A DNA stretch of 55,764 bases from a virus, in IMG/VR virus record IMGVR_UViG_3300033402_000018, one strand, 5' to 3'. Positions 2,820 to 36,233 of this stretch are shown here, one piece after another (position 1 is the stretch's first letter; every line of letters begins with the position of its first letter). The position numbers and the translations under genes were made by a program. The notes beneath the pieces are model-generated. The model was not told the origin of the DNA. It did no database searches and saw only the letters and a program-made list of their open reading frames with translations.

Positions 2820-2826
2820 TAGACTC

Positions 2827-3384
2827 ATGAAAATCAAAGACTTAAAGCTACACGCTTTCTGGAAACGGTTTTTCCGCCGCCTTAGTAGGGGATTGGGCGT
2901 GCCGAAGAAGATTGCAGCGACAGAGGTAAAAGCACCGGGAAAATACGAAGCTGGTAAGCGGTACACCATCTTTCTCGCCGGAGCCATCGACCAAGGTAAA
3001 GCGGTGGACTGGCAGCAGAAAGTCGCCCGCGCTCTGGACGAACTGGACATTCTGATCCTGAATCCGCGCAGAGAGAATTGGGACCCAAGCTGGGATCAAT
3101 CCGCAGACAATCCTGAATTCAGGCAGCAGGTAAATTGGGAACTTGACGCACAGGCGGCCGCTGATATGGTGATTTTCGTGTTCACCAAGGACAGCAAGGC
3201 ACCGATCACGTTCTTGGAATTCGGTCTGTTCGCCCCAACCAAAGACGCCGTGGTCTGCGCTGAAGAAGGCTTCTACCGCAAGGGAAATCTTGACATCGTA
3301 GCTGAGCGCTACCACATTCCAATGTATGACAATTTGGATGAGATGATCGGTGACTTGAAGACGGTGCTTGGGGAGAAAGCATGA
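2827..3384 (+). CDS. nucleoside 2-deoxyribosyltransferase-like protein
   Basis: N-terminal YTIFLAGAIDQG Rossmann-like motif typical of the NDT/RCL family; 185 aa. Confidence 0.45.
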   Translation: MKIKDLKLHAFWKRFFRRLSRGLGVPKKIAATEVKAPGKYEAGKRYTIFLAGAIDQGKAVDWQQKVARALDELDILILNPRRENWDPSWDQSADNPEFRQQVNWELDAQAAADMVIFVFTKDSKAPITFLEFGLFAPTKDAVVCAEEGFYRKGNLDIVAERYHIPMYDNLDEMIGDLKTVLGEKA

Positions 3385-3716
3385 GCCAGACAGTTTACGT
3401 GCTAACGACCTTGATGGGGGAAAACCCGAAGCTGCCGAAAGAGTGGCGTCCTGTTGGCGTGGTAACAAGCCTCGACATCGCTGAGCAATGGGTCGCGCAC
3501 GGCGGGAACAACGATTGGATTCCGTTTGAGATTGACGATACCAGTTTGACCGGATTAAGCGACAACCCTTCAGTGTTTAAGCCCGCGCCGCCTACGCCGA
3601 ACGAAGAGAAGCTGGAAAAGGCCAACCAGCAATTGCAAGGCGTGATTCAGACGCTTCAGAAGCGACTCGAAAAGAAAAAGCCAAAGGCTTCCCTTTTGAA
3701 CAAGAAACGGAGATAA
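3381..3716 (+). CDS. hypothetical protein
   Basis: ORF of 111 aa with ATGA overlap; basic C-terminus. Confidence 0.4.
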   Translation: MSQTVYVLTTLMGENPKLPKEWRPVGVVTSLDIAEQWVAHGGNNDWIPFEIDDTSLTGLSDNPSVFKPAPPTPNEEKLEKANQQLQGVIQTLQKRLEKKKPKASLLNKKRR

Positions 3717-3722
3717 TAGGGT

Positions 3723-4046
3723 ATGGTCACATTGACACCCGGAGCGGTAAAGAAAGTCAAGGAAATCATGGAGCAGCAAGACCCGAAGCCAGCCGCACTG
3801 CGTCTTGGCGTTATTGGCGGCGGATGCTCCGGCTTTCAGTATTCTATGCAGTTCGAGAATGAGAAGGGCATGATGGACAAGTCCTTCGAGTTCGACGGTC
3901 TTACGTTGATCGTTGACGCTACATCGTACATGTATCTCGACGGCTGCGAAGTTGATTACCTTGAGACGCTCGAAGCCAGCGGCTTCAAGTTCAACAACCC
4001 GAACGTGAAAAGCACCTGTGGGTGCGGTCAGAGCTTCAACGCATGA
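3723..4046 (+). CDS. iscA: A-type Fe-S cluster carrier protein (IscA/ErpA/HesB family)
   Basis: 107 aa with conserved C at GGGCSGF and C-terminal CGCGQSF motif (three-Cys signature of IscA/ErpA). Confidence 0.85.
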   Translation: MVTLTPGAVKKVKEIMEQQDPKPAALRLGVIGGGCSGFQYSMQFENEKGMMDKSFEFDGLTLIVDATSYMYLDGCEVDYLETLEASGFKFNNPNVKSTCGCGQSFNA

Positions 4047-4219
4047 GCGAAGAGAATTTTGATTTCGCATTGGACTCATGGACTATCACGCCTGAAGAAG
4101 GCGAAAGAATTGCCCGTGATTTGCAACGACAGTATATCGAAGATCACATTAGGCAGTTCGGGGGCGTCACCCTGCTTTGCCTGCGGCCCAAGAAAGATGA
4201 AACCAATGATGGATTGTAA
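4043..4219 (+). CDS. small acidic hypothetical protein
   Basis: ATG overlapping the iscA stop (ATGA); 58 aa. Confidence 0.3.
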   Translation: MSEENFDFALDSWTITPEEGERIARDLQRQYIEDHIRQFGGVTLLCLRPKKDETNDGL

Positions 4220-4552
4220 ACCCAAGCCGAAGAGAGACGGTGGTAAGTCGGAACCGTCTTCGCGGCACGTTCCGCGACGATCCACCGAACTACGACAAGC
4301 CGATCTATGACCGTGATGGTAACCAGATCGGTGTGATTTATGATGCGCCTCCCGCGCCGGGGCCGAGCGGATTATCATGATTTGTTGCTCAATTTGTAAA
4401 GAAATGGTCGTATCTAGTGTTGAAGACCTCCGTTTGAGCGAAACGTTGGTCAGGATACAAGACCACTACAAGACGCATTCTTGGCTGCGACGTAAGCTTC
4501 ACAGGCTACAAACGTTGCCAGCGACATTGCGGCTGAAGAGATTTCAAAAAAC

Positions 4553-4969
4553 ATGTACTCTGAAAAAGTAATCGACCACTACAACAACCCGCGTAATGTT
4601 GGCTCGCTGGACAAAGCATCGCCAGACGTGGGGACAGGTCTGGTTGGTGCGCCGGAGTGCGGCGACGTAATGAAGCTTCAGATCAAGGTGGAAAACAATG
4701 TCATTGTTGACGCTAAGTTCAAAACTTTTGGCTGCGGCAGTGCTATTGCTTCTAGCTCGCTCGCGACTGAATGGGTTAAAGGCAAGACAACTGATGAAGC
4801 CCTCGCCATTAAAAACACCGAGATCGTCAAAGAACTCGCCCTCCCACCTGTAAAGATTCACTGTTCAGTGCTCGCCGAAGACGCGATTCGCGCCGCGATT
4901 GCTGACTGGAAAAAGAAGCAAGATGCCGAAAAAGCCAAAGAAGAAAAAGCCCATCACGAAGCGCGATAA
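4553..4969 (+). CDS. iscU: Fe-S cluster assembly scaffold protein IscU/NifU-like
   Basis: MYSEKVIDHYNNPRNVGSL, GAPECGDVMKL, FKTFGCGSAIASSS, LPPVKIHCSVLAEDAI: three conserved Cys plus LPPVK motif. Confidence 0.9.
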   Translation: MYSEKVIDHYNNPRNVGSLDKASPDVGTGLVGAPECGDVMKLQIKVENNVIVDAKFKTFGCGSAIASSSLATEWVKGKTTDEALAIKNTEIVKELALPPVKIHCSVLAEDAIRAAIADWKKKQDAEKAKEEKAHHEAR

Positions 4970-5116
4970 CTTCGACCGCAACTACATGCGCCACATTGTG
5001 GAAGAAGAGGAAGAAACGCTGTTCAAACTTCTGCAAGAAGACAAGCCCACCAAATCCTAATTTCTCCAGTATTAAAGCCTTTAGTAGGCGGTATTCCGCC
5101 TTCGAAAGGAACGACT

Positions 5117-5503
5117 ATGTACAAAAGACCCGAAAGAAAGCATAAACCGAACACAGAAAAGTGCCCGTTCTGCGACAAAGATTTCAAACCAATTGATCCG
5201 TGGCGCGAATCACAATGCGTGCTCAACAAGCCGCTCTGGATGGTGATCCCACCCGGCGGCGTCCATCTCGAATGCCCGGTTCACCCCGAGGGACATCATG
5301 TCTTCGGCAGCCCGGTCATCTACATGGATTCTCCTATCCGTGTTCGTGAGAACAACTTACCTGACCCGTTAAACGCGCCGTGGTGCGAGTACGACCGCAC
5401 GAAGTATTCAGGCGGCTGCACCTACGATCACGATTCCAGCAAGGATTTGACGTTCGATTCCACCAAACCCTTCGGAACCACGACAGGCTCGAATTGGCGG
5501 TAA
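5117..5503 (+). CDS. hypothetical protein
   Basis: 128 aa ORF, Cys/His-containing N-terminus (CPFCDK). Confidence 0.4.
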   Translation: MYKRPERKHKPNTEKCPFCDKDFKPIDPWRESQCVLNKPLWMVIPPGGVHLECPVHPEGHHVFGSPVIYMDSPIRVRENNLPDPLNAPWCEYDRTKYSGGCTYDHDSSKDLTFDSTKPFGTTTGSNWR

Positions 5504-5524
5504 TCTAGGAAAATTTGGTATTAG

Positions 5525-6106
5525 GTGGGCATGAGTCAATATGATCGTGTCTACCTAGACCAATGCTACGCACTCGCCAAGAACAGCACATGTGTGAAGG
5601 CCAAAGTTGGCGCTCAAGTGCGCGGACCCTACGGCGACATGTCTGACCACCTGCTAGGTCAAGGTTTTAACCAATCCCCCAATCCTGAGTTTGCTGACTG
5701 CGGCAAGCTGTGCGCCGGGGGCATCCGCTGCGGCATTAAGTCCGGTACTCGCGCTGAACTCTGTTACGCCGTCCACGCGGAGCAATACGCACTACTTCAG
5801 GCCGGATCGCTCGCGAAAGGGGCCACGATCTATGTCGCTTCCTACGATGACAAAGGCGAGAAACGCCTGAAGAACGCTGAACTCCCGCTGGGGCACCCGA
5901 TGCACGGTTTCTACTGTTCGGTGTGTGCTAGGCTCATCTGGGCTGCGGGAATCGCACGTGTAGTGACGGACGGTGTAAAGGGCCCGGTTGTTCTCAGCCT
6001 GAATGACATCTGGAAGACCTCTTACGGCGTGGCGGACAGTATTGACAAGAAGTACAAATCCTGCGGTTGCGAAGTAGGCAATTGCATCTGTGATATTGAG
6101 ACCTAA
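5525..6106 (+). CDS. cytidine/deoxycytidylate deaminase-fold zinc-binding protein
   Basis: CYAVHAEQYALLQAG (H-A-E zinc/catalytic motif) and downstream YCSVCARLI (PCxxC motif). Confidence 0.55.
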   Translation: MGMSQYDRVYLDQCYALAKNSTCVKAKVGAQVRGPYGDMSDHLLGQGFNQSPNPEFADCGKLCAGGIRCGIKSGTRAELCYAVHAEQYALLQAGSLAKGATIYVASYDDKGEKRLKNAELPLGHPMHGFYCSVCARLIWAAGIARVVTDGVKGPVVLSLNDIWKTSYGVADSIDKKYKSCGCEVGNCICDIET

Positions 6107-6639
6107 TGTCAAACCTCGCTGAACTCAAAGACCTGCCCAAAGAGCGGAAGAAGTATGTCGTTGGCTTCTTGATTGATCCCACGTTGTCTAAGGTGGTGCT
6201 CGTGCGTAAGAACCGACCTGACTATCAACGCGGTCTGCTCAACGGCGTGGGCGGGAAAGTCGGAGACACGATCCTAGACGAAACCACGGAAGAGGCGATG
6301 GCCCGTGAGTTCCAAGAAGAGACGGGTGGGGTTGATCTCAACTGGCGGCGGTTCTTGCACATGATGACACCCCGGTCAGACCTGACATTTTTCTACGCCA
6401 TCGGCAATGTTCACTGTGTCCGAACACAGACCGACGAAGAAGTAGCGGTGTATGACATTTCCGATGTGATGGATCGCTGCGATACGATGCCCAATGTTCG
6501 CTGGTGCATTCAGATGGCACGCTCTATTGAGTTCGGTGAGCACGCGGATTACTTTGAAGTGGCTGAGATTTTGGAGACAGACTTACCAGCGAATTTTCAT
6601 TTCATCCCGGATGCAGCGCTTGAAAAAGAAGACCTATGA
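6106..6639 (+). CDS. NUDIX hydrolase
   Basis: Nudix box GGKVGDTILDETTEEAMAREFQEETG (GX5EX7REUXEEXGU). Confidence 0.8.
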   Translation: MSNLAELKDLPKERKKYVVGFLIDPTLSKVVLVRKNRPDYQRGLLNGVGGKVGDTILDETTEEAMAREFQEETGGVDLNWRRFLHMMTPRSDLTFFYAIGNVHCVRTQTDEEVAVYDISDVMDRCDTMPNVRWCIQMARSIEFGEHADYFEVAEILETDLPANFHFIPDAALEKEDL

Positions 6640-7574
6640 ACATTGAATCGAAACTGATACTTGCCAGCAAGAGCGAAGCAACAGGCATCACCCTTTACAC
6701 GTTTGTGCTCACGTACCCACGTGTCATCCTAGCTGAAGTAAACACGCATCGAATGCTCAGCCGCAACACCGCGTCATCTCGCGCTATTCCAGCCAAGAAA
6801 CAGCGGGAACGCGTGCTTACTGATCCGTTCGTGCCTGTCACAATTGGGGCGAATCAGAAAGGGATGCAGGCTGGTGAAGAGCTTGACGGCTGGCGTCGGT
6901 TTGTTGCGATCAACACGTGGAAACTTGCACGCTACCCAATGGTAGCGGCGTCGTGGGTACTCGACAAGGTTGGTGCGCACAAGCAAGTTGTGAACCGCAT
7001 TGTGGAGCCGTGGACGTTCACGCAGCAAGTTGTGACTTGCACCGACCTGAAGAATGTCTTCAAACTGCGCAACCACAAAGATGCAGAGCCACACTTTCAA
7101 ATCATCGCGAAACAGATGCAGATGCAAGCAGAGTGGGCCGAGAAATGGTTTAACACCCTTTCGTGGAACTCGGAGAACGCGCTTGACCGTAGATTAGAAA
7201 TCAACAACCAACTTGGTGTTGGTACTCTTCAGGTGCTAAAGCCGGGGGAGTGGCACATGCCGTTTGTTGATGAGAAGGACATCACAGACACAATCCTGAA
7301 CTCCATGCTGCATGACAGCACTGACGAATCCCTGAAGAAAATCAGCACAGCACGCTGCGCACGTGTCAGCTACTTTCTACCGGAGAGCGGCAAAAGGTCT
7401 GACCCTAAGCGTGACGTAGAGCTTTGCAATAAACTGTCCGGCTCCGGTCATTGGAGTCCGTTCGAGCACGTAGCCACGCCGACAAAAGAAGCGGATTACA
7501 TTGGCAATTTTAAGGGCTGGAAGCAGTATCGTAAAGAGTATCCGCAAGAGTCTGGAGGGGACCGTGGGAATTGA
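6636..7574 (+). CDS. thyX: flavin-dependent thymidylate synthase ThyX-like
   Basis: HRMLSRNTASSRA matches the ThyX RHRxxSxxxxSxR signature; size 312 aa. Confidence 0.6.
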   Translation: MNIESKLILASKSEATGITLYTFVLTYPRVILAEVNTHRMLSRNTASSRAIPAKKQRERVLTDPFVPVTIGANQKGMQAGEELDGWRRFVAINTWKLARYPMVAASWVLDKVGAHKQVVNRIVEPWTFTQQVVTCTDLKNVFKLRNHKDAEPHFQIIAKQMQMQAEWAEKWFNTLSWNSENALDRRLEINNQLGVGTLQVLKPGEWHMPFVDEKDITDTILNSMLHDSTDESLKKISTARCARVSYFLPESGKRSDPKRDVELCNKLSGSGHWSPFEHVATPTKEADYIGNFKGWKQYRKEYPQESGGDRGN

Positions 7575-7608
7575 AGGCTGGGGCAGATCATTTGGGGCGA
7601 TTCAAGCG

Positions 7609-8094
7609 ATGGAGAAACGCCTTGCGAAGCAGCGCGAGTGGGACATCTACTACCTGAACATGGCCCGTTACGTCTCCACGAAGTCGAAGGACCCAAGCAC
7701 GCAAACCGGAGCGTGCATCGTGCGCCCGGACAACTCTTTGTGTTCCATTGGCTTCAACGGCTTCCCCAAAGGCATGAATGACGCCCCGGAGCTTTACGCC
7801 AACCGTGATGTAAAGTATTCTCGCACAGTGCATTGCGAAGTCAATGCCGAAATCTTCACCAGAGAAGACCTGAAGGGGTTTACGCTTTACACGTGGCCTT
7901 TCTCATCTTGCGACCGTTGCGCGGTGACGATGATTCAGGCGGGAATTGCACGTTTTGTGTTTCCAACCATGCCGCCAGAGAAGGCGTCCCGTTGGGCTGA
8001 AAACATGGCGATAGCGCAAGGCTACATGCGGGAAGCTGGGCGGGAAGTGGTTGAGATACCGTATGAACAGATTCCCAAGGTTGTGCTAGAATAA
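7609..8094 (+). CDS. dCMP deaminase (ComEB-like)
   Basis: HCEVNAE and SCDRCAVTMIQAGI motifs (HAE / PCxxC); start placed at first ATG after upstream stop (alternative GTG ~7563). Confidence 0.7.
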   Translation: MEKRLAKQREWDIYYLNMARYVSTKSKDPSTQTGACIVRPDNSLCSIGFNGFPKGMNDAPELYANRDVKYSRTVHCEVNAEIFTREDLKGFTLYTWPFSSCDRCAVTMIQAGIARFVFPTMPPEKASRWAENMAIAQGYMREAGREVVEIPYEQIPKVVLE

Positions 8095-8099
8095 ACGAT

Positions 8100-9131
8100 A
8101 TGGCTAAAAAACAGGTTCGAACAACGCGTAAGGAAGATAAGCCGAGACCGTACAAGGTCGATTATTTCGAAGAGAACGAAATGATCGACAACGACAAGGC
8201 GTTGGTCCGTAGCCGTGTCGTCCGCGCCGTTACGTCTGCGCAGGCGTCCAATCTTGTGATGCTCGAAGATGGGTGGGAATCGCGTAACCGATTTATTGTT
8301 CGTGCGTCTCGCTTTTATGGGGAGTTGAAACAAGCGCAGGAAAACAAGTACGTCCCCGTTGAAGACCTGTTCCCTGAAAAGAAGGCACTCGATGTCATGG
8401 CGAACATCGAGGTTATCCGCGCCGCCGCTAAATCCCGTACAGCCGCTCCCGTAGCGCCAGCCACTCCAGTTGCATCAAGCAACACGTGCCGCTGGCATGG
8501 CGATCAGTACCTTGATGCTTCAGGTCGTTGCACGCGTCTTGACCCATCCTTCATGTCTGCGGTGTGCGCTCCGTCTGTGCCTACGTCGGGGCCGGACAGT
8601 CAGGCAACCAAGGATGTCATGGCGGATTTCAATGGCATGATGTCTCATGACGAGCACGAACAGAGAATGGACAACTTCGTGCCGGACATCACGCCGGGAC
8701 TAAGAACTTCACAGTACCAAGCCGCAACGGGAAACAAGACTCCAATCGTTCGGACAGCGGACGGGCAACTTGGTGTGCTTACTCCGAGCCTTTCGTTCCC
8801 CGACAAGCCAGTGGTGCCTACACAGCCAGCCGTGTTTGACGGTGACGAGCACCACATTGATCTGGACGAGTGCGCACCAGTGATTCATCCCGCGCCGGAC
8901 GCGGGCTGTTCATGTGAGCCGCACGGCGAGACTGATCCAAGCTGTGTGGAACACGGCATTACAGCGCCGCCGATTGACACAACGGGTCAGGTGCTCACAT
9001 CTATGGGTACTTCGGCTCCATGGCAAACCCCGGACGACCCGCTCCCTACGTGGGCGAAGGTGCTCCTATTCGGGGGTGCGGCATTCTTCGCAGTGGTGAT
9101 AGCACTCGCAGTCCTGAAGTGTGGACATTAA
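8100..9131 (+). CDS. hypothetical membrane-anchored protein (Ala/Pro/Thr-rich, C-terminal TM helix)
   Basis: 343 aa; C-terminal LLFGGAAFFAVVIALAVL hydrophobic helix. Confidence 0.5.
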   Translation: MAKKQVRTTRKEDKPRPYKVDYFEENEMIDNDKALVRSRVVRAVTSAQASNLVMLEDGWESRNRFIVRASRFYGELKQAQENKYVPVEDLFPEKKALDVMANIEVIRAAAKSRTAAPVAPATPVASSNTCRWHGDQYLDASGRCTRLDPSFMSAVCAPSVPTSGPDSQATKDVMADFNGMMSHDEHEQRMDNFVPDITPGLRTSQYQAATGNKTPIVRTADGQLGVLTPSLSFPDKPVVPTQPAVFDGDEHHIDLDECAPVIHPAPDAGCSCEPHGETDPSCVEHGITAPPIDTTGQVLTSMGTSAPWQTPDDPLPTWAKVLLFGGAAFFAVVIALAVLKCGH

Positions 9132-9219
9132 ACAAGTGGGTCAATGACCACTTGTTCGAGTTGGTAATTGCGTTGTTGGTTTTGCCCGTGGTTATTGCGT
9201 ATCTTTTCGGTCATCACTG

Positions 9220-9426
9220 ATGGAACAGCACTACTGCCAACGAATCCCAAAGCCGGGGCCAAACACGCTTTCTCTGACCTCCATAGAAGGCGACCCGGAC
9301 GCCTGTGGTAAGATCGCGCACTTCAAATACAGACCAGAGGACCCATACGATGTCTTTGAGCCGGACAAAGTTTGGTGGTTGTGTGCGGAGTGCTATGATT
9401 TTGCCATGATCTTCGACAAATTCTAA
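9220..9426 (+). CDS. hypothetical protein
   Basis: 68 aa ORF, CxxC motif. Confidence 0.35.
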   Translation: MEQHYCQRIPKPGPNTLSLTSIEGDPDACGKIAHFKYRPEDPYDVFEPDKVWWLCAECYDFAMIFDKF

Positions 9427-9460
9427 ATTTCTAAGATTCTAGCCCTCTTGTAGAGGGCAA

Positions 9461-10027
9461 ATGGTTTATTTCATCATCGAAGCATCGCATCTTTTCCGCG
9501 CCGGGACAAAGTATCAGACCCAGTTTTTCGTGATGGATGTTGTGAATTTCATCCATCGCAAGTTCAGGGGTTTCTGCTCCGGCTGCCCAGAGCCTTGCCC
9601 GGAAATGGTGCCACATGTGATTGTTCTTCACGGCTCTGTTAAGCAGGAACAGGGCGACCGCTATGCCGCCGCGCTCGAACGCCACGGCGTGAAGGTTGTG
9701 CGTATGCGCCCGATTGAGTCGGACAGCGCAGGCAAATGGTTTTTCAAGCCAGCTTGGTACATGCACAAAATGATGGGGACGGACATCCCTGAAGGCTCTG
9801 ATGTTGTTCTGGTGGGGTTTCACAATATCCGCTACCTAAAGTTCCTCGAAAAGTATGCCACTCGATACAACCTGCATGTGGCCGCCTTTCAAACGCCAAG
9901 CGCCAAGCAAGGGATGATGCACGTTCCTGATGAGTTTAAGCCATTACTCAAAAGCGTAATTGACCTTGACATGGATGTCCCCGGCATCAAAGCAGAGTTC
10001 AAGAAAAAGCTCAGTAATAAAGCTTGA
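9461..10027 (+). CDS. hypothetical protein
   Basis: 188 aa ORF following a hairpin; no clear motif. Confidence 0.5.
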   Translation: MVYFIIEASHLFRAGTKYQTQFFVMDVVNFIHRKFRGFCSGCPEPCPEMVPHVIVLHGSVKQEQGDRYAAALERHGVKVVRMRPIESDSAGKWFFKPAWYMHKMMGTDIPEGSDVVLVGFHNIRYLKFLEKYATRYNLHVAAFQTPSAKQGMMHVPDEFKPLLKSVIDLDMDVPGIKAEFKKKLSNKA

Positions 10028-10130
10028 GCGGTTCACGGGCCTAAAGCTTCGTTGGTTAGCACCCCCCGATCTTATGTTCGCTCGCCAGAAGACCGGGAGA
10101 AGATGCAACCCGTGGACCGTCAAGGACTCA

Positions 10131-10515
10131 ATGAACGCTAACGAATACCAGACGCTCGCTGAAGTTACCGAGAGCAAAGATTTTGAAGCAATCGGTAAAC
10201 GCATGTCAACCATCCGTAGCATCCGTCTTCTCCACGCGACAACTTGGCATTTCCAGCGAATGCGGTGAAGTCGCTGACGCACTCAAGAAGCATATCTTCT
10301 ACGGCAAGGAACTGGACGTAGTAAACGTTGCCGAAGAGATCGGCGATATTTGCTGGTATCTGGCGCTCGCTTGCAATGAGCTTGGTATGGCATTCGAGCA
10401 GGACATCTTGGAAGTCAACATCGCCAAGCTGAAGGCCCGTTACGGGGACAAGTTCTCCGAGCACGCGGCCATGCACCGTGACCTCAACAAGGAACGTGCT
10501 ATACTCGAAGGATGA
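10131..10515 (+). pseudogene. mazG: MazG-like nucleoside triphosphate pyrophosphohydrolase interrupted by an apparent +1 frameshift (~10240-10250)
   Basis: Frame 0 encodes MNANEYQTLAEV...IRLLHA (then stop); frame +1 continues LGISSECGEVADALKK...EEIGDICWYLALA...KLKARYGDKF. Fused, this reproduces the MazG RLLHAALGLAGEAGE / EELGDLLW motifs. AAGGA RBS before 10131. Confidence 0.6.
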
Positions 10516-10922
10516 GCACAGTAATTGAGCGCGGCTTCAGCGGCCCCGTTTGCGGAGAATGCGGGTCTGTCCTGCCAGTGGCGGGAGACTACAACCGTGT
10601 TTGTCTGAAGTGCAACCCTGAAAAAGAAATCTACTGGTTTGACGAGCGCGAACTGAGAGTGCTCCGCGAGATGATGGATGCGAAAGAGATGTCGGCGAAG
10701 GCTGTTGTCCGGCATATTTTCCGTCTCGGTCAGATGTGCGATCTATTCATCTCCCAAGGCTATAAGATCAGGTTTGAATCACCTGATGGCGGGGAGACAG
10801 TAGACCCGTTAGCTGGCCCGCCAAAGATGGCAGAGATGCCATACTGCGGCAATCCGCTGTGTCATCGCACGAGCGGCTTAACGATTCATAATCCTGATTG
10901 CCCGGAGTACGAATACAGATGA
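10512..10922 (+). CDS. hypothetical zinc-ribbon protein
   Basis: CGECGSVLP...CLKCNP and C-terminal CGNPLCH...NPDCPEY Cys clusters. Confidence 0.5.
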   Translation: MSTVIERGFSGPVCGECGSVLPVAGDYNRVCLKCNPEKEIYWFDERELRVLREMMDAKEMSAKAVVRHIFRLGQMCDLFISQGYKIRFESPDGGETVDPLAGPPKMAEMPYCGNPLCHRTSGLTIHNPDCPEYEYR

Positions 10923-11052
10923 GCTACAAAGACGACCAACTCGCGTTCAAAGTTATTCTAGGGGTCATCGTTACGATAATCGTTGGCACACTGGTGGTTT
11001 ATGCGACTGCTGGCGCTGTCATTATCCATTTCGTCAAGAAGTTCTGGTAACC

Positions 11053-11253
11053 ATGAAGATCAGGGTTAAAATCACACCCGCACGCTTGGAACGCCTGATG
11101 GCTGGCGAGCCGCTCAATTACGCCGTGGGCAACACGGAAATTGAGATCGTCATGGCAGATGACGTTTTTTCCAAGTTTGATGCGATTTTCGAGAAGATTT
11201 CCAAGATCGTCAACAAGACGGTGGAGAAGATTGAATCCGCAATCCTTAAGTAG
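11053..11253 (+). CDS. hypothetical protein
   Basis: 66 aa ORF. Confidence 0.4.
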   Translation: MKIRVKITPARLERLMAGEPLNYAVGNTEIEIVMADDVFSKFDAIFEKISKIVNKTVEKIESAILK

Positions 11254-11255
11254 GA

Positions 11256-11846
11256 TTGCCCATGCCTCGTTACATCGACATTGACCAAGAGCGTTTGTCC
11301 CACCTTCATGAGGGTTTAGAGCTTCTGGAGATGGTTGACCGTGAAGCAATCGCGGGACTGGACTTGTGCGTTTACGGGATCACCAACAACGCGTCCATTC
11401 TTGATTCCGCTAAAGAAGCCATCGCTGATTCTGAAGAAGTAGCGGAGCAGGACGTAGCCCTTACTGAGATTGCTGTAGCCATTCCGATCTCGTCTGACAC
11501 TATCTACGCGCTGAACGGTTCCGGCATTCGCCTCAGCCGCGAGGATTTTGCATACATGGGTTCCGGTGGTGAAGGTGTCCGCACCATGACTTTCGCTTTC
11601 GCTCACTTCAAATCGACAGTGACCCTGAATTCATTTTCCAAGCTCGCAATTGCTTCGTCTGATTCGTGGCTGGATGATTTCTTGCGTAAGGAAGGCTCCG
11701 GGCAGCAAGCGAAGGTCACTCCCGCTGTTCACCGCACCGAAGAAGCCACAGTTCCCGGCGCTCCCCCGGCACCAGAAATTCCGAAACGTACATCCGTTAT
11801 GGGTGGGCCCCGTCTGGCGTCCTTGATTGACGAATTTCTTGCATGA
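11256..11846 (+). CDS. hypothetical protein
   Basis: 196 aa acidic ORF. Confidence 0.5.
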   Translation: MPMPRYIDIDQERLSHLHEGLELLEMVDREAIAGLDLCVYGITNNASILDSAKEAIADSEEVAEQDVALTEIAVAIPISSDTIYALNGSGIRLSREDFAYMGSGGEGVRTMTFAFAHFKSTVTLNSFSKLAIASSDSWLDDFLRKEGSGQQAKVTPAVHRTEEATVPGAPPAPEIPKRTSVMGGPRLASLIDEFLA

Positions 11847-12298
11847 AACTAACGCGGCAACAGCGTGAGCAACTCCGCATGAAGTTTGGCGGGAAGTGTG
11901 CCTACTGCGGCTGCGATCTTCCTGAAAAAGGCTGGCACGCCGATCATGTTGAGCCTGTCTACCGTGAGTGGTGGAAAAGCACCAAATGGTGGAAAGAAGC
12001 GCACGGCACCAAGTGGTCGGTCAACGAAGCTGGTAACCTTGAGCAACACGCTGTCCCGCTGGAGAAACCGGGGTTCGAGCGCCCGGAAAATGACACACTG
12101 GAGAACCTGTTCCCGTCCTGTGTTCCCTGCAATCTGGACAAGCACGCGAGTCCCTTGGAAGTATGGCGGCAGCAGCTTGAAGGTCGCGTTGATGTATGTC
12201 GTAGAAACTATTCTGCATTCCGCCACGCCGAACGTTTCGGTTTAGTGCAGCAAATCCACAAACCTGTGGTATTCTGGTTTGAGCAATACTCCGGCTAG
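11843..12298 (+). CDS. HNH endonuclease
   Basis: CAYCGCDL...HADHVEPV...NLFPSCVPCNLDK (HNH with zinc-binding Cys pairs); ATGA overlap. Confidence 0.75.
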   Translation: MKLTRQQREQLRMKFGGKCAYCGCDLPEKGWHADHVEPVYREWWKSTKWWKEAHGTKWSVNEAGNLEQHAVPLEKPGFERPENDTLENLFPSCVPCNLDKHASPLEVWRQQLEGRVDVCRRNYSAFRHAERFGLVQQIHKPVVFWFEQYSG

Positions 12299-12351
12299 AC
12301 ATCCCCGAAAATTAAGAGTATCATTCGGTTTAGAACTGGCATCTAACCGAC

Positions 12352-13185
12352 ATGGCGAACAAACCCAGAACCGACTCGCTGGGTGACAGAATGAAGCGCT
12401 ACGAAGCAACCACGCGCTTCCTGTTGCCGCGCCGCACTTACACAATTCTTCGCGTTGATGGTCGTGCGTTCCACACGTGGACTCGCGGGCTTGACCGTCC
12501 CTATGACCGCAACTTCATGGCGTGCATGAACGAAGCCGCGCTCGAACTTTGCCAGCAGATCGCGGGAGCGCAGTTCGCTTACGTGCAGTCCGACGAAATC
12601 AGCCTGTTGGCTGTGGACTTCCTTGACATCAAAACCGAGCCGTGGTTTGAAGGCGGCGTGCAGAAATGGGCCAGCGTCGGCGCATCCATCGCAACGATGG
12701 CGTTCAACAATTGCTTGCTTCGGCTGAAGGGGGCAAACCTCGACGAGTCTGAGCTTAAGATCACCAAGAAGCTCCCGAACGCCACGTTCGACGCCCGCGT
12801 GTTCACCATCCCAGACTTGGTGGAAGTGGAAAATTATTTCGTGTGGCGGCAGCAGGATGCGGAACGCAACTCCGTCACAATGCTGGCGCAGAGCTACGCT
12901 TCCCACAAGCAACTCATGGGGAAAAATCGCGCCGCGCAGCATGAGATCATCCACAAAGCCGGGGACAATTGGGCGAAGCATCCTGTGCGTTTCAAGCATG
13001 GCGCTGTGATCCGCCGTGCCGCTGAAAACGAAGTCTGGACGGAAGTCGGCACCCATCATTTCAACTGGGTTGTGGACGAAGACACCCCAGCCTTCACCAA
13101 AGACCGCGCTTACATCCGTGGTCTGGTTCCTGTTGTTTGGGACAACGACCTTCTGGTCAGAAAGGCGGCAGCGAATGGAGAATAG
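12352..13185 (+). CDS. tRNA(His) guanylyltransferase Thg1-like protein (TLP)
   Basis: DRMKRYE, TILRVDGRAFHTWTRGL, FAYVQSDEISLL match the conserved Thg1 N-terminal palm-domain motifs. Confidence 0.7.
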   Translation: MANKPRTDSLGDRMKRYEATTRFLLPRRTYTILRVDGRAFHTWTRGLDRPYDRNFMACMNEAALELCQQIAGAQFAYVQSDEISLLAVDFLDIKTEPWFEGGVQKWASVGASIATMAFNNCLLRLKGANLDESELKITKKLPNATFDARVFTIPDLVEVENYFVWRQQDAERNSVTMLAQSYASHKQLMGKNRAAQHEIIHKAGDNWAKHPVRFKHGAVIRRAAENEVWTEVGTHHFNWVVDEDTPAFTKDRAYIRGLVPVVWDNDLLVRKAAANGE

Positions 13186-13516
13186 CCCCAAGCTCGATTA
13201 TCGCGTCATTTCTGTAAACGACGCTGCATACCGCTTCCGCGTTCGCCAGCTTGAAACTGATTTCATGTTTGCGGATGGCTCCGTAAAGACGTTCACCAAT
13301 TGGGACGTGAAGGGTGTACGCGAGCGCCACTACATGGAAGAGTACATCAACGTTCCGGTTGAGGAATACCTGCGTTCCGCAGTTGGCGAGCAGGAAATCG
13401 TGGCGTATGGTGTAAAGATGTCAGACATTCGCAAGTTCATCTCGGATAAAGCGGAGTTCTTTGAAGACCTTCTGCTGGAAGCCGCGAGCAACGTTCCCCT
13501 CGATGGGGACGAATAG
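13175..13516 (+). CDS. hypothetical protein
   Basis: In-frame ATG (MENSPKLDYRV...) just before the upstream stop; the longer ORF from 13016 overlaps the Thg1-like gene. Confidence 0.45.
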   Translation: MENSPKLDYRVISVNDAAYRFRVRQLETDFMFADGSVKTFTNWDVKGVRERHYMEEYINVPVEEYLRSAVGEQEIVAYGVKMSDIRKFISDKAEFFEDLLLEAASNVPLDGDE

Positions 13517-13602
13517 ACCTTCAACCGCAGCGGGTAAGCGGTGGAGCATAGGGCGGGAGTTCAGAGTCGGCTCCCGCCCAACAACTCAGAATCGAGGGAA
13601 CA

Positions 13603-13830
13603 ATGCAGTTCATACTTTACATGGTTTTGGCGGGGTTGCTGGGGTTGGTTCTCGGTGTGGAAGTTCTCGTCTACAAAGAGAACGAATGGGTGCGCAACTT
13701 CATGAGCAACCGCCCGGTGCTGGGTTGCACGGCTGCGTCGGTTCTAGCCGCATTAGCACTTTGCCTGCTCAGCTACCTACTTACCGTGGCTCTTTTGGCG
13801 GTGCTGGGTCTGCTTGTTGGAGGGCACTGA
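13603..13830 (+). CDS. small membrane protein
   Basis: 75 aa, two hydrophobic helices; ATGA overlap with next gene. Confidence 0.45.
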   Translation: MQFILYMVLAGLLGLVLGVEVLVYKENEWVRNFMSNRPVLGCTAASVLAALALCLLSYLLTVALLAVLGLLVGGH

Positions 13831-14033
13831 TGTTCGCACTGCACTTTCAAATCATTGAACGCCGGAAGCCGCTCAGCTTCAAGCTGGATGACACTGTTCT
13901 GGACAGCAAGACCTTCAGTCTTCCTGACCTGACGATTGACCAACGGGTTGAATTTTTCAACAAGATCGACAAGGTTTGCCGCCAGATTCAACGCAAGGCG
14001 GAAAGAACAGAGAAGGCGAAAAGCAAGAAATGA
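13830..14033 (+). CDS. hypothetical protein
   Basis: MFALHFQIIERRKPL...; ATG overlapping upstream stop. Confidence 0.4.
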   Translation: MFALHFQIIERRKPLSFKLDDTVLDSKTFSLPDLTIDQRVEFFNKIDKVCRQIQRKAERTEKAKSKK

Positions 14034-14551
14034 ACTGGGCCAAACGATCTGGTGACGCGATTTACGCGTCCCGCTGGTTGCTGCTACCGCTGAGCGCGGC
14101 TATGCTTGTCGTGCTCGCGGCGTACATCGTCGCGTTCCTTGTCAGCGACTACGAGTTCATCCGCCACATCAAGTTCGATACTGAATCGCTCATGGTTGTG
14201 GCGCTGAGTTTCGCCGATGCTTACATGGTCGCAAACCTTCTGCTCATGATCGCGCAAGGCAGCTTCCAGATTTTCATCCAGAAATTCAATTTCCCCGATC
14301 CGGTGAACCGCCCGTCGTACCTCGACCATATTGATTCCGGTCTGCTGAAAGTGAAGATCGCGCAGTCTGTAGGCGGGATTATGCTGGTACGCCTGTTGGA
14401 AGATTACGTGAACATGGAACATGTTGATTGGGAGATCGTTAAGCACCGCTTGGTTGCGATCCTGACTACCGTCGTTGTAGCAATGATTTTCGCGGGCATC
14501 TGGCGCGTCACTCACCCAGCTTGGCAGCAGGAGCATCATGAAACACATTAG
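14030..14551 (+). CDS. UPF0114/YqhA-family inner membrane protein
   Basis: MNWAKRSGDAIYASRWLLLPL... resembles the YqhA N-terminus (..AMYASRWLLAPVY..); multiple TM helices; ~173 aa. Confidence 0.6.
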   Translation: MNWAKRSGDAIYASRWLLLPLSAAMLVVLAAYIVAFLVSDYEFIRHIKFDTESLMVVALSFADAYMVANLLLMIAQGSFQIFIQKFNFPDPVNRPSYLDHIDSGLLKVKIAQSVGGIMLVRLLEDYVNMEHVDWEIVKHRLVAILTTVVVAMIFAGIWRVTHPAWQQEHHETH

Positions 14552-15830: not shown

Positions 15831-16373
15831 ATGGCGCAGGACGTTAATTTCAAGAAAACCGCAGCAACAGAGACGCAGTACAACACAGGCGCACAGCGGG
15901 ACAATCGAGTAGGTAAAGGGGCGTTTCACTGGATGCCGTGGGACGCCCTGTTTTGTGTCTCCCGCATCTATGAGCTTGGCAACAAAGGCCGGAGCAAAAC
16001 CGGAGACGGCAACGACCGTAATTGGGAAAACGGGATGCCGCTCATTGACCTGTTGCAGAGCGCGATCAATCACATCTCAGCCCACATCTCAGGCGACCGC
16101 AGCGAGCCGCACATCTCACAGGCAATCTGGAACCTATTGAACTACCTTCAGACTTCGATCTGGGTTATCCTAGGGTTCCGCCCCAAGGAACTCAACAAGC
16201 TGCCAGACCATCGCCATGCTTGGAAGCCGGGGGATGAGCCGCCATGCCCGTTGTCACCACAAGAGATTGAGTGGTTACAGTTCAAGGGTGTGATCCCAAA
16301 AGAGCCAGAGTTGCATGATTGCGGGCCTGAACCAGCCGTTCTTAAGGTGGTATTGCCCGGATCGGAACGCTGA
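15831..16373 (+). CDS. hypothetical protein
   Basis: 180 aa ORF. Confidence 0.5.
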   Translation: MAQDVNFKKTAATETQYNTGAQRDNRVGKGAFHWMPWDALFCVSRIYELGNKGRSKTGDGNDRNWENGMPLIDLLQSAINHISAHISGDRSEPHISQAIWNLLNYLQTSIWVILGFRPKELNKLPDHRHAWKPGDEPPCPLSPQEIEWLQFKGVIPKEPELHDCGPEPAVLKVVLPGSER

Positions 16374-16416
16374 TCTGGAATTTAGCGTATTCGTAGCTCT
16401 TTTGTAGGACTCACGA

Positions 16417-19125
16417 ATGCCCTCCCTTCTTCACAAGCTGAGCTTCTTTGACCCCGAGGTCGGACGCTACTTCGTCGTAGCGAGCGACGGTTTTTACTGG
16501 AAAGAAGCCAAAAAATCACCTGAAGACTCCAAGGTTACAAAGCTGCTGGCTCAATACGGCTGGCAACTCCGAAACGGCAATGACGTGTGGTTGATCTTTA
16601 GACGCCCACGGACGCCGGGGGAGTTGTTCGTAATTCGTGGGGAGAAACGCTGGTATTATGATCTCCCAGATTCCGACCTGTTTGACGTAGCGGCGGAGGG
16701 TAGGGGTCTCGACAGCCTTCAACAGGCAATCGAGAGCGGTAAGCTGCCGGGAGCAAAAGCCAAGGGAATGACCGCCAGCCCCACCACAACGGCCGTCAAT
16801 AACGCCGGAAATGGTCACGGCTCCATGCCGGACGACCAGCTTGAACCAGATACCAAGTACGGCATGATGGGCCGACCGGACTACGGTTCCGGGTACACCG
16901 GAATCATGAACGAGTTGAATGCTGAAGATGATGAATGGAGCAAGGAAGCGTCCATTCTGGTTCTGAACGGCAGCGTAAAGATGGGTTCCACGACAGCGGA
17001 AACCTCGCTCTACGTCACAGGAGCGGAGTATCAAGGCTTGACGCTCACCAAGTTTACCTTCAGCCCTGACCGTCACAAGGCAAAGATTTTCCCAAAGCTT
17101 ACCGCGCAGAATCTCAGTCAACAGATTTTCGGTAAGTTCGCCACGGTTGCTCGTGTCGTGCTCGCCGCCGACTATCGCGAGATGTTTAAGGCTACCCTTG
17201 CGCTCGATCCCAAGTACGATAAAGTAATCAACCGTGAAATTGAGTGGGCTAAGCGCGTCCTCAAGAAGCAGGATCGCATCGTATGGTATCTCCGTTGGGT
17301 TCGTTTGGCTTGCGTGCATGACATGCTTGGCAGGGCGCATCTGGACGAGAACCCGGCTGGCGTTACGGCGGCTGCGGCTGCTCCCGCCCCGGCCCCAAAT
17401 CAGCCCCAGCAGCCCGCGCAGCAACAAAAGAAGCCGCAGACACGCACAGAGCAGATCAAAGCGTTGTACCAGCAGTACGACCGCGAGATGACGAATAAGA
17501 GCGGCGGCGGTGAACTTGTCACGCTGACTGACTTGGTTCACATGAAGCAGAGCCTTGAACACTTCTACTCACTGCACTCGCCAGAGATTGACAACTATAG
17601 CCCCAAGTACGAAAGCTGGAATGATCTCTACGGAAAATTCTCCGTGTTCGAGCAGGCTTGGAAGGAAGAAGCCGGGAAAGCACTCAAACCCAAAGAGGGT
17701 GATGAGATTTGGATTCAGTTCCCGGACGGCTGGGCGTGGTGGCATTTGCCACGCGCATCATGCGAAGACGAAGCTGCGGCGATGGGTCACTGCGGAAACT
17801 CACCTAATGCCAAAGCCAAGGGTGTTTCAATTCTCAGTTTGCGTAGACCGATCAAACGCGGCAATGAGACTCGCTGGGAGCCGCATCTAACTTTCATCCT
17901 GCACGGCACTGTGCTGGGCGAGATGAAAGGTAAGGGAAACGACAAGCCAGCGCCACAGTACCACAAGTACATCATCCCTTTGCTGCTGGATAAACGTATC
18001 ACTGGGGTTGGCGGCGGCGGTTATCTCGCAGAGCACAACTTTTCAATGAACGATTTGACGCCGGAACAACGCGCAGAAATCTCCAAGGCGAAGCCATCAA
18101 TGGGTATGAGCCTAAGCGGTTACTATAAAGCCTACGGCATGGACGATACATTAGCCGCCAGAATCAAGGCGATCCTTGGCATGGACTCGGCAACTTATGA
18201 TCCACAGTGGGGTTTTGCCCTGCGTTCGTGGGATACGCGTGAAGATTTCCTCGATGATGTGGGTGATTCCGAAGCATCGAAGGCCGCCACGTTCGTCCAG
18301 ACCGGGGAGCATGACTACGATGACCCAGACATTGACGAGTTGACCGACCTACTGGACGGCTTTGATGAAGTGGAACTGCATAACCTAGGGTTGCAGTTGC
18401 AGTACGATTATCCACGCGAGATGCGTGAGTGGTACGCGAACTTCAATCCAAATGATCGTGACGCGCTTAAGATGGCGCTTACGGACCTGTACAACGCGTA
18501 CATCAAGGGAGCCAAAGCACAGCATTCAAACCAGCGCAAAGGCTTGGAAAAGAAGATCAAAGAACTGGAAGCCAATGTGTCTGAAGACCCGGCGGCAGCG
18601 AACGAAGTTACTCCGCTGAAAGAGAAGCTGAAGAATTTGCGTCTCGATAAAGTCTGGGAGAAAGTTCCAGCACTGCTTGAATTGTATTCTGCTTATTTGT
18701 CAGGCGGGCCCGATCAAAACACAGTGGATAAACTACTGCGTGAAGCGCTCGAACGTGGCGTGGACGAGAGCGGGACTGAGATTCGTCGTACCAAGGACGG
18801 CAAGTGGCTGCAACTTTTGAGCGAAGAACAGGCAGTTGCCGACGCCGAAGCCGCGCAGAATCGTCACGGCACCGGAGGCTACTATGAGGCCCCGGAAATT
18901 AACGTGAGCATTCCGTATGATTGGGATGAGTTCGATGAAGAACGCGCAAGGGAATCCGCGAAGGAATATTTCAGTCGTCCGCCGAAGCGCCCGGAAGTTG
19001 ATAAGCGGCAGCGCCGTTTGTTCCCGGAACCAAAGACGGAAGAGTCCGCAAAGCGGCACGGAATCACCGTTTCCCATGCAAAGAACCCGCTTCTGCGCCG
19101 CAAGTCGTTAAAAACAAAGGTGTAG
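16417..19125 (+). CDS. large hypothetical protein (902 aa) with low-complexity AAAAPAPAPNQPQQPAQQQKK linker
   Basis: Single uninterrupted 902-aa ORF; no recognised catalytic motif; possibly virion-associated. Confidence 0.6.
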   Translation: MPSLLHKLSFFDPEVGRYFVVASDGFYWKEAKKSPEDSKVTKLLAQYGWQLRNGNDVWLIFRRPRTPGELFVIRGEKRWYYDLPDSDLFDVAAEGRGLDSLQQAIESGKLPGAKAKGMTASPTTTAVNNAGNGHGSMPDDQLEPDTKYGMMGRPDYGSGYTGIMNELNAEDDEWSKEASILVLNGSVKMGSTTAETSLYVTGAEYQGLTLTKFTFSPDRHKAKIFPKLTAQNLSQQIFGKFATVARVVLAADYREMFKATLALDPKYDKVINREIEWAKRVLKKQDRIVWYLRWVRLACVHDMLGRAHLDENPAGVTAAAAAPAPAPNQPQQPAQQQKKPQTRTEQIKALYQQYDREMTNKSGGGELVTLTDLVHMKQSLEHFYSLHSPEIDNYSPKYESWNDLYGKFSVFEQAWKEEAGKALKPKEGDEIWIQFPDGWAWWHLPRASCEDEAAAMGHCGNSPNAKAKGVSILSLRRPIKRGNETRWEPHLTFILHGTVLGEMKGKGNDKPAPQYHKYIIPLLLDKRITGVGGGGYLAEHNFSMNDLTPEQRAEISKAKPSMGMSLSGYYKAYGMDDTLAARIKAILGMDSATYDPQWGFALRSWDTREDFLDDVGDSEASKAATFVQTGEHDYDDPDIDELTDLLDGFDEVELHNLGLQLQYDYPREMREWYANFNPNDRDALKMALTDLYNAYIKGAKAQHSNQRKGLEKKIKELEANVSEDPAAANEVTPLKEKLKNLRLDKVWEKVPALLELYSAYLSGGPDQNTVDKLLREALERGVDESGTEIRRTKDGKWLQLLSEEQAVADAEAAQNRHGTGGYYEAPEINVSIPYDWDEFDEERARESAKEYFSRPPKRPEVDKRQRRLFPEPKTEESAKRHGITVSHAKNPLLRRKSLKTKV

Positions 19126-19168
19126 AAAGTTCACCAAATACGCCGATTCCATCGTATACTAGAGTGGA

Positions 19169-19798
19169 ATGACATTACTCGAACGAGCAATTGAGATCGC
19201 CGTCCACGCCCATGCTGGGCAGATGGACGAAGACGGCTTGCCGCACATCATCCACAGCCTTGAAGTCATGTTCGCTGTGAAACGCCGATTCAGCGGTGAC
19301 CGTTGCCTCGCGCCGATCCTGAAGAAATACACCGAAGAAGAACTACTCATCGCCGCCGTCTTGCACGACACCGTGGAAGATTCCAAGGGTGCGATCACTC
19401 TGGACTACATCAAGTCCGTGTTCGGTGAGAACGTGGCTGAGATCGTAGACAGCGTGACGCGGCGCGGTTTAGGCGAAGGCGAGACGAAAGAGTTTTACCG
19501 GGACTTCATCTATCGCGCCAGACTCAACGAAGGCGGTGCGATCATCAAGCTGAGCGACCTTCACCACAACTTCGGACGCCTGAACAAAATCGCCGCCAGT
19601 AAGAAGAAGTGGCGCGAGAAACTGGAGTTCAAGTACGGAATATCCATCGGCGTCATCACCGACAACATCTCATGGGAGCAAGCATCTTGGAGTGTCCAAC
19701 ACGACGGCCCCCATGCTCACTATTACATTGCTGACCCTAACGGCAAGAAGATCGAAATCCCCGAAGAAGAATTCAATCAGATTTTTGCAAAAAAGTAA
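19169..19798 (+). CDS. (p)ppGpp hydrolase, SpoT/RelA-type HD domain (small alarmone hydrolase-like)
   Basis: AHAGQMDEDGLPHIIHSLEV and AAVLHDTVEDS match the RelA/SpoT hydrolase HD-domain motifs; 209 aa with no synthetase domain. Confidence 0.7.
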   Translation: MTLLERAIEIAVHAHAGQMDEDGLPHIIHSLEVMFAVKRRFSGDRCLAPILKKYTEEELLIAAVLHDTVEDSKGAITLDYIKSVFGENVAEIVDSVTRRGLGEGETKEFYRDFIYRARLNEGGAIIKLSDLHHNFGRLNKIAASKKKWREKLEFKYGISIGVITDNISWEQASWSVQHDGPHAHYYIADPNGKKIEIPEEEFNQIFAKK

Positions 19799-35728: not shown

Positions 35729-35729
35729 T

Positions 35730-36122: not shown

Positions 36123-36127
36123 AGTTT

Positions 36128-36213: not shown

Positions 36214-36233
36214 AATTTGCGGCTGTTAAATTT

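Follow-up and report, generated by a model that had tools for sequence, protein, structure and literature searches.

A bacterial-type Thg1-like protein within a putative tRNA-care gene set of a huge phage

The gene examined here lies at 12352..13185 of a 55,764-nucleotide (55.8-kb) viral stretch (IMG/VR record IMGVR_UViG_3300033402_000018; the whole of this stretch is hereafter called the window). It had been proposed, from the sequence, to encode a Thg1-like enzyme repairing tRNA 5' ends, and to form a dispersed tRNA-maintenance toolkit together with a peptidyl-tRNA hydrolase of the PTH2 type and a Pol-beta nucleotidyltransferase. The best explanation of the locus is probably that of an active bacterial-type Thg1-like protein (TLP) within a tRNA-care gene set of a huge phage. 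All three open reading frames (ORFs) are present on the plus strand where the original prediction had placed them, and we are highly confident of the identities of the enzymes that they encode (lengths in amino acids, aa):

12352..13185, plus strand: TLP gene, 277 aa, a predicted template-dependent 3'-5' RNA polymerase
37505..37768, plus strand: PTH2-type mini peptidyl-tRNA hydrolase, 87 aa (Pfam PF01981)
52726..53562, plus strand: RlaP-family Pol-beta nucleotidyltransferase, 278 aa (Pfam PF10127 and phrog_388)

Results

A predicted bacterial-type TLP with an intact active site

The translation of 12352..13185 contains the motifs M14-KRYE18, R34-VDGRAFH41 and F75-AYVQSDEISLL86, as had been noted before, and matches the Pfam Thg1 profile (PF04446) over positions 2-130 of 130 at 93 bits, against a cut-off of 29.2 (E-value 1.9e-26). 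It also matches PHROG 4717, 'tRNA-His guanylyltransferase', at 1.6e-76. The Pfam Thg1C domain scores 19.1 bits, under its cut-off of 26.3, with the alignment to the TLP of Bacillus thuringiensis (BtTLP) still extending to residue 259. BtTLP (4kgk) is by far the nearest solved structure (E-value 1.4e-51, residues 8-259); among the others, Candida Thg1 gives 1.3e-14 and human THG1 2.1e-5.

The palm-domain carboxylates, on which the Thg1 assignment depended, are conserved. They are D36, D81 and E82, corresponding to D30, D75 and E76 of BtTLP (D29, D76 and E77 in the human enzyme), and in an alignment of 121 sequences (120 homologues plus BtTLP) they are found in 120, 121 and 120 sequences, respectively. 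The roles of further residues were mapped from the BtTLP work of Hyde et al. 2013 (PMC3701042), in which E12 forms a salt bridge with the nucleoside triphosphate (NTP)-binding arginines (TLP counterpart E18), R28, R131 and R147 bind NTP or are required for activity (R34, R149 and R166), H35 touches the ribose 3'-OH (H41), and S74 serves the activation step (S80). E18, R34, D36, H41, S80, D81, E82, K105, R149 and R166 of the phage protein are all essentially invariant across the 120 homologues.

The motif HINNLYN, a mark of eukaryotic Thg1, is absent, the phage TLP having RQQDAERNSVTM (DAERNSV) at the site where Candida Thg1 has RQVDCHINNLYN (CHINNLY). The activation asparagine of eukaryotic Thg1 (N161 in yeast) is missing as well; M177 stands in its place, aligned with M158 of BtTLP. 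Because BtTLP is the closest structure, DAERNSV replaces CHINNLY and a methionine replaces the activation asparagine, the product of 12352..13185 is assigned, on sequence grounds, to the bacterial-type TLPs and not to the eukaryote-type tRNA-His guanylyltransferases. Thus, the enzyme family that had been predicted stands, whereas its reading as a bona fide Thg1 does not.

The resemblance to BtTLP (PDB 4kgk/4kgm) extends to the three carboxylates, the triphosphate-binding arginines, the activation serine, the methionine at the asparagine site and the lack of HINNLYN. By contrast, the phage TLP has R49 for K43, a C-terminal extension of about 18 residues, and conserved flanking ORFs. Eukaryotic Thg1 enzymes (yeast, human 3otb and Candida 3wbz) share with it the fold family, the catalytic carboxylates and 3'-5' chemistry, but the similarity is far weaker; in addition, with C73 and a gene-encoded G-1, the tRNA-His of the phage does not require the non-templated addition of G-1 opposite A73. 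In vitro, BtTLP favours 5'-truncated tRNAs 5-160-fold over -1 addition and accepts tRNAs besides tRNA-His, and its G-1 addition opposite C73 reaches 5500 M-1 s-1 (PMC3061083).

TLPs are encoded by at least 579 IMG/VR contigs, and homologues of the phage TLP occur in 164 GenBank phage records, most among those listed being annotated as tRNA-His guanylyltransferase. A megablast search with 11000..14500 found no nucleotide-level relatives among isolated phages.

The PTH2 and RlaP enzymes

The 87-aa ORF scores 52.9 bits against Pfam PTH2 (cut-off 23; 5.1e-14). Its conserved catalytic residues are present: all 49 homologues, the majority 86-96 aa in length, share its K18, Q22, H25, D66, G68 and T70, and K18 and D66 align with K18 and D86 of Sulfolobus Pth2, which we take to be the catalytic Lys and Asp. 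An alignment-based AlphaFold2 (AF2) model has a pLDDT of 95; the top 14 matches of this model in a Foldseek search of the PDB are all PTH2 proteins, with query-normalised TM-scores of 0.64-0.75 to the crystal structures. The phage protein is about 30 residues shorter than the solved PTH2s and is, as judged from sequence and model, a trimmed yet intact PTH2. Between the tRNA array described below and the PTH2 gene lies a Cys-rich 127-aa ORF (36882..37265), which scores 22.9 bits, under the cut-off of 29.3, against the RNase P zinc-ribbon subunit Rpr2/Rpp21; this match may be due to chance.

The Pol-beta nucleotidyltransferase was correctly recognized as such and can be placed more specifically in the RlaP family (PF10127, 64.4 bits against a cut-off of 23, 1.7e-17; phrog_388, 2.3e-46). 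Its Pol-beta signature (G32-S33, D45-x-D47 and D98) is at least 95% conserved in 120 homologues. According to a 2025 preprint, RlaP enzymes put one or two nucleoside monophosphates on the 3'-OH of damaged RNAs (PMC12776372), and by analogy an extension of damaged RNA 3' ends by one or two nucleotides is predicted for the phage enzyme.

A shared gene order in a clade of huge phages

The window comprises one complete metagenomic contig. Other assemblies of the same phage overlap it at >99.9% identity, and one of them (L007) reaches 7.8 kb beyond its 3' end. Close homologues of the TLP (60-78% identity) are encoded on contigs of 435-465 kb, two of which are classed as viral in IMG/VR. The window also contains a gene resembling the one for major vault protein (MVP), to which we return below:

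50013..52460, plus strand: MVP-like ORF, 815 aa (Pfam MVP_shoulder 3.3e-26, Vault_3 5.5e-11)

The GenBank phage relatives of this MVP-like ORF are found only in uncultured huge phages of 462-735 kb. Because of the >99.9% identical assemblies, the large contigs carrying TLP relatives, the huge-phage relatives of the MVP-like ORF and the mostly orphan ORFs, we conclude that the window is part of a huge-phage genome, even though it contains no structural gene. The closest cellular TLPs, with at most 48% identity, belong to Bryobacterales (Acidobacteriota) and Armatimonadota; this sequence similarity may serve as a weak hint to the host.

The window, a related 453,890-bp contig and the 102-kb contig UViG_3300036876_000145 share the gene order TLP, PTH2, RlaP. 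Throughout this clade, the PTH2 gene is always found after the tRNA-Ser array, and the RlaP gene always ahead of the Trp/His/Arg tRNA array. PTH2 and RlaP can lie closer together than in the window: the 102-kb relative has four tRNA-Ser genes, PTH2, tRNA-Leu, the MVP-like gene, RlaP and a second tRNA array within 16 kb, and in the relative L174 PTH2, the MVP-like gene and RlaP lie inside 8 kb, flanked by tRNA arrays. The 453,890-bp relative also encodes a KptA/Tpt1 RNA 2'-phosphotransferase near RlaP (L009 19105..19650) and, near TLP, a 104-aa RF-1-domain protein (L010 4009..4323), possibly a ribosome-rescue hydrolase.

RNA-repair-type genes adjoin TLP genes in other phages

The surroundings of TLP genes were surveyed in the best 80 viral TLP loci from the at least 579 contigs. 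Neighbours were clustered and representatives checked against Pfam, with RlaP, CCA-adding enzyme, RNA ligase (PF09414), HAD_SAK_2 and PTH2 counted as RNA-repair-type genes; dereplication left 73 loci. An RNA-repair-type gene lies within 2 kb of TLP and on the same strand in 19 of these 73 loci, and 23 of the 37 RNA-repair-type hits fall within 2 kb, compared with 22% expected by binomial test (p 1.7e-7; hits sharing a locus are not independent of each other). By contrast, only 1 of 80 cellular TLP loci has such a neighbour.

Several of these arrangements are tight. TLP directly adjoins RlaP at distances of 6, 39 and 68 nucleotides (nt) and PTH2 at 581 nt, and genes for CCA-adding enzymes, RNA ligases and HAD_SAK_2 proteins adjoin it too. 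Cassettes of three or four genes were observed in the orders HAD-RlaP-TLP-CCA (L075), HAD-TLP-RlaP (L061), CCA-RlaP-TLP (L038) and RNA ligase-TLP-CCA (L022). Because TLP, RlaP, PTH2 and related families are thus linked in phages, reading them as a toolkit is reasonable. A 161-aa neighbour family, phrog_3668 'hydrolase', was considered as a relative of PTH2 and rejected, the hhalign probability of 0.6% giving no support for such a relation.

A broad tRNA complement, and a possible tRNA-His substrate

The window itself contains one tRNA array:

35639..36311, plus strand: tRNA array Ser(GCU), Ser(CGA), Ser(GGA), Ser(UGA), Leu(UAA), identified by ARAGORN, Rfam and direct reading

The four tRNA-Ser together read every serine codon, and a strategy centred on this tRNA-Ser set had been suggested. 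The suggestion fails because 15 more tRNAs, of other types, sit just past the window end, in a second array that begins 3.2 kb beyond the 3' end and runs to 7.7 kb (L007 16253..20757; Trp, His, six Arg, two Asn, two Gln, Met and two Lys). The phage has at least 20 tRNA genes in total, and its tRNA complement is broad, not serine-centred.

The five window tRNAs are all of the long-variable-arm type, with CCA encoded and acceptor stems fully paired (including one G-U pair); none has a mismatched 5' end that would call for 5' editing. A missing G-1 on the phage tRNA-His was likewise discarded, the tRNA-His(GUG) gene (L007 17090..17167) encoding G-1 opposite C73 as well as CCA, as does its counterpart in the 453,890-bp relative. 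Given the paired stems, the encoded CCA and the encoded G-1, no intrinsic requirement for 5' editing or for adding G-1 can be seen in these tRNAs. A 217-nt structured spacer (35816..36032) with a T-arm-like hairpin (GGTTCGATCC) lies within the tRNA-Ser array. About 79 nt of it are kept at the same position in the relative L174, and it has no match to a known RNA in Rfam at E-values up to 1.

These observations bear on the idea that the TLP is dedicated to tRNA-His, where it would restore or guarantee G-1 opposite C73 for charging, possibly by a mini HisRS-like protein of the phage. The name tRNA-His guanylyltransferase, which database entries mostly give to the family, agrees with this idea, and BtTLP adds G-1 opposite C73 as efficiently as yeast Thg1 acts on its own substrate, but it prefers truncated tRNAs of any kind (PMC3061083). 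The phage does encode a tRNA-His with C73, and just upstream of it a second cloverleaf is seen (L007 16996..17076), which has U73, a GUG anticodon and a T stem of 4 bp and is called by neither ARAGORN nor Rfam; directly upstream of both is a HisRS-like ORF without an anticodon-binding domain (L007 16364..16990). However, this ORF appears frameshifted near its N-terminus, and the 453,890-bp relative, which has both TLP and tRNA-His, has no HisRS-like ORF between its tRNA-Trp and tRNA-His. Since G-1 is gene-encoded in both phages, RNase P should leave it in place. Moreover, a tRNA-His gene lies within 10 kb of TLP in only 4 of the 80 viral loci. Dedication of the TLP to tRNA-His is therefore considered unlikely, and an active TLP with a wider part in tRNA care is preferred.

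Proposed role of the gene set

The substrates of these enzymes and their cooperation we infer as follows. By homology to BtTLP, the TLP would activate a tRNA 5'-monophosphate with GTP or ATP. Nucleotide addition would then proceed 3'-to-5', with the acceptor stem's 3' strand serving as template, and a truncated 5' end would in this way be rebuilt; the same chemistry could place G-1 opposite C73 on tRNA-His. As partners, RlaP would restore 3'-end nucleotides and the mini-PTH2 would free peptidyl or otherwise blocked tRNA, and the set may further include the MVP-like gene beside RlaP and the phage tRNA genes. The likely purpose would be to keep the tRNA pool usable in infection, also after damage by host nucleases. 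Counter-defence as the purpose of the set, which the original prediction had favoured, can be put forward tentatively and by analogy; the idea is not new, having already been proposed for jumbo phages (PMC7824862).

Several points weigh against an active TLP in a tRNA-care set. The TLP gene is 25 kb from PTH2 and 40 kb from RlaP, and is embedded among nucleotide-metabolism genes instead of an RNA-repair cassette. The window and the 7.8 kb beyond it yielded neither an RNA ligase nor a CCA-adding enzyme, and no end-healing enzyme of the polynucleotide kinase or HAD/metallophosphatase kind. Of the parts of a complete RNA-repair system, this span, to which the statements on missing enzymes below also refer, holds nucleotidyltransferases only (TLP and RlaP), plus one phosphatase, and so falls short of such a system. 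Around the TLP gene of other phages, full cassettes do occur. The proposed toolkit thus survives as a grouping, through gene order in three genomes and adjacency elsewhere, but without ligase, end-healing or CCA-adding enzymes. The shared order in three relatives could stem from common ancestry alone. The ATP-positioning K43 of BtTLP is R49 in the phage TLP, a position occupied by K in 90 and by R in 31 of the 121 aligned sequences. Finally, we know of no host nuclease that trims tRNA 5' ends, and no biochemistry on any phage TLP was found in the literature searched. The phosphatase, predicted from a dual-specificity (cysteine) phosphatase domain (1480..2190; Pfam DSPc 1.2e-14), is the sole one seen in the span.

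Taken further, such points would leave no toolkit at all: TLP, PTH2 and RlaP would be independent translation-related cargo of a huge phage, co-occurring through common descent in one clade. This agrees with the spacing of the genes (25 and 15 kb apart, with many orphan genes between) and with their partial overlap among contigs matched by length, only 6 of 16 TLP contigs of at least 100 kb (plus one of 49 kb) being also among the best 120 RlaP matches and only one TLP contig among the best 120 PTH2 matches; in addition, RlaP does not adjoin the MVP-like gene in LR756500/501 or in the 453,890-bp contig. Independent cargo would, however, not lead one to expect that many unrelated phage contigs carry members of these families directly side by side, an arrangement nearly absent around cellular TLP genes, nor that L174 packs PTH2, the MVP-like gene and RlaP so closely between tRNA arrays. 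We regard it as distinctly improbable, and retain the reading of a tRNA-care set.

Surroundings of the TLP gene

The TLP gene is flanked by the following ORFs:

11256..11846, plus strand: upstream ORF, 196 aa, conserved and always ahead of the TLP gene in this phage clade
11843..12298, plus strand: HNH endonuclease, situated between the upstream ORF and TLP (PHROG 2118, 4.7e-52; Pfam HNH)
13175..13516, plus strand: downstream ORF, 113 aa, conserved, its start overlapping the TLP stop by 11 nt

Homologues of the upstream ORF occupy the same place in L004, L010 and L012-L015 (42-63% identity), and those of the downstream ORF lie right after TLP in L004 (61%), L010 (31%) and L012-L015. Neither ORF has a match in Pfam or PHROG, and a single-sequence AF2 model of the downstream product was unusable (pLDDT 38). 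Because of the 11-nt overlap (ATGGAGAATAG), the downstream ORF may be translationally coupled to TLP. The HNH gene is missing from this site in the 447,784-bp and 453,890-bp relatives, and is therefore probably an inserted mobile, homing element outside the function of the TLP.

On either side (2187..10922 and 15831..19798) extends a dense nucleotide-metabolism block, comprising an HD protein, a nucleoside deoxyribosyltransferase, two dCMP deaminases, a NUDIX protein, a ThyX-like protein, MazG, a dATP/dGTP diphosphohydrolase-like protein and a second HD protein. The block hints at a modified DNA base. A 2-aminoadenine (Z) genome was considered and rejected: a MazZ-like and an HD protein are encoded, but none of the ORFs scanned proved to be a PurZ resembling adenylosuccinate synthetase.

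That the TLP acts within this nucleotide-metabolism and replication block on a non-tRNA substrate, such as the 5' end of a phage RNA or primer, is most improbable. Its conserved neighbours do include dCMP deaminases, NUDIX, ThyX-like, MazG, dGTP_diPhyd_N and HD proteins, an AAA ATPase and a DNA ligase, an ATP-dependent DNA ligase lies 3-7 kb from TLP in 13 dereplicated viral loci, and one TLP in Dictyostelium has reportedly been proposed to have non-tRNA substrates. However, the ligase distances are in keeping with an order of modules and not with an operon, TLP genes of other phages have RNA-repair and not replication genes as their nearest neighbours, and tRNA or tRNA-like acceptor stems are the substrates of every family member characterised.

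Elsewhere in the window, a 606-aa protein with a C-terminal OmpA domain (27507..29327), a permease-like ORF (29516..30406) and an ABC-transporter ATPase (31598..32497) are encoded, together with homologues of the Fe-S cluster assembly proteins Fe-S_biosyn and NifU_N (3723..4046 and 4553..4969) and a ferredoxin near 32.9 kb. Most window ORFs have no family match.

An MVP-like gene as a recurrent neighbour

The MVP-like ORF directly precedes a small ORF, which is followed by RlaP:

52523..52759, plus strand: hydrophobic ORF, 78 aa, between the MVP-like gene and RlaP, overlapping the RlaP start by 34 nt

Gene prediction in two independent assemblies of this phage includes this ORF, for which no family match was recorded. 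A profile scan found MVP-like genes in at least 214 viral contigs, and neighbours were surveyed at distances of about 10 kb and 3 kb in 80 of these loci (L174-L253), which form 66 dereplicated groups:

Metallophosphoesterase: 18 groups at about 10 kb, 9 at 3 kb
RlaP: 11 groups at about 10 kb, 6 at 3 kb
AAA_33 kinase: 11 groups at about 10 kb, 5 at 3 kb
DUF2828/DUF7788: 9 groups at about 10 kb, 5 at 3 kb
PTH2: 7 groups at about 10 kb, 6 at 3 kb
TLP: 5 groups at about 10 kb, 4 at 3 kb, all of the latter within 1 kb

Of the 66 groups, 24 have at least one member of these families, here grouped as RNA-repair-type, no more than 3 kb from the MVP-like gene, and 39 of the 80 loci have tRNA genes within 10 kb. 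TLP is found 92-905 nt from the MVP-like gene in at least four phage contigs of independent sequence, and 2.3 kb from it in a further contig, binned to a gut bacterium. At one of the loci (L176), 380 nt separate the MVP-like gene from a tRNA array (12806..14319) in which all tRNAs are Ser, Leu or Tyr, apart from one that ARAGORN left undetermined in type. MVP and RlaP as a conserved pair had to be given up in view of the genomes in which this adjacency is absent, and the link holds only in the form of an 'RNA-repair-type neighbour'.

We regard this link as a lead and not as a result. Judging from gene neighbourhood only, it is possible, if doubtful, that phage MVP homologues form the scaffold or shell of a machine for tRNA repair and quality control with TLP, RlaP and mini-PTH2 as its clients. 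Burroughs and Aravind are said to have proposed, in 2016, SPFH/Band-7 scaffolds for RNA repair. In the literature searched, no report of a link between MVP and tRNA-repair genes was found: by text search, the words tRNA, neighbour and RNA repair are absent from a 2023 preprint reporting viral MVPs, and neither a vault nor an SPFH protein is mentioned by Iyer et al. 2021 (PMC7824862).

The comparison with the eukaryotic vault (MVP shell, TEP1, PARP4 and vault RNA) rests on the MVP shoulder and vault repeat domains of the 815-aa ORF and, in other phages, on the adjacency of MVP-like genes to RNA-acting enzymes and to DUF2828 proteins with a metal-binding DxSxS motif. In contrast to the eukaryotic particle, the phage MVP homologues and their link to repair enzymes are known from genes and gene neighbourhood alone.

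Discussion

RlaP, CCA-adding enzyme, Thg1 and PTH2 have been described in jumbo phages by Iyer, Anantharaman, Krishnan, Burroughs and Aravind (2021; Viruses 13:63; PMC7824862), who read them in terms of repair of RNase damage, ribosome rescue and RNA-repair counter-defence. The window is an example of that complement. It differs in one respect: RlaP is said there to mirror the distribution of RNA ligase (PMC7824862), and the family owes its name to an RNA-ligase neighbourhood, whereas no RNA ligase was found here with the present RlaP.

A second precedent is phage T4, in which Pnkp and Rnl1 counter the PrrC anticodon nuclease. There, too, a phage heals tRNA damage inflicted by its host, and T4 has an RlaP homologue, NrdC.11 (PMC12776372). 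However, T4 heals and ligates breaks in the anticodon loop, whereas TLP works on the 5' ends of acceptor stems, and the kinase, HAD/metallophosphatase end-healing enzyme and ligase were not found here.

Because this gene set has already been described for jumbo phages, the window locus alone adds little. The wider survey bears on the family. Of bacterial-type TLPs, only the in vitro preference for truncated tRNA 5' ends has been shown, and phages offer a clear setting in which to test their natural role. The compact phage cassettes of TLP with RlaP, CCA-adding enzyme, RNA ligase and phosphatase predict that both strands of damaged acceptor stems are rebuilt, and they imply host nucleases attacking tRNA ends, none of which has yet been matched. 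The main extra value, and the part worth following up, is the recurrent MVP-like neighbour: a phage MVP scaffold, if true, would provide a testable ancestral function for vault-like particles.

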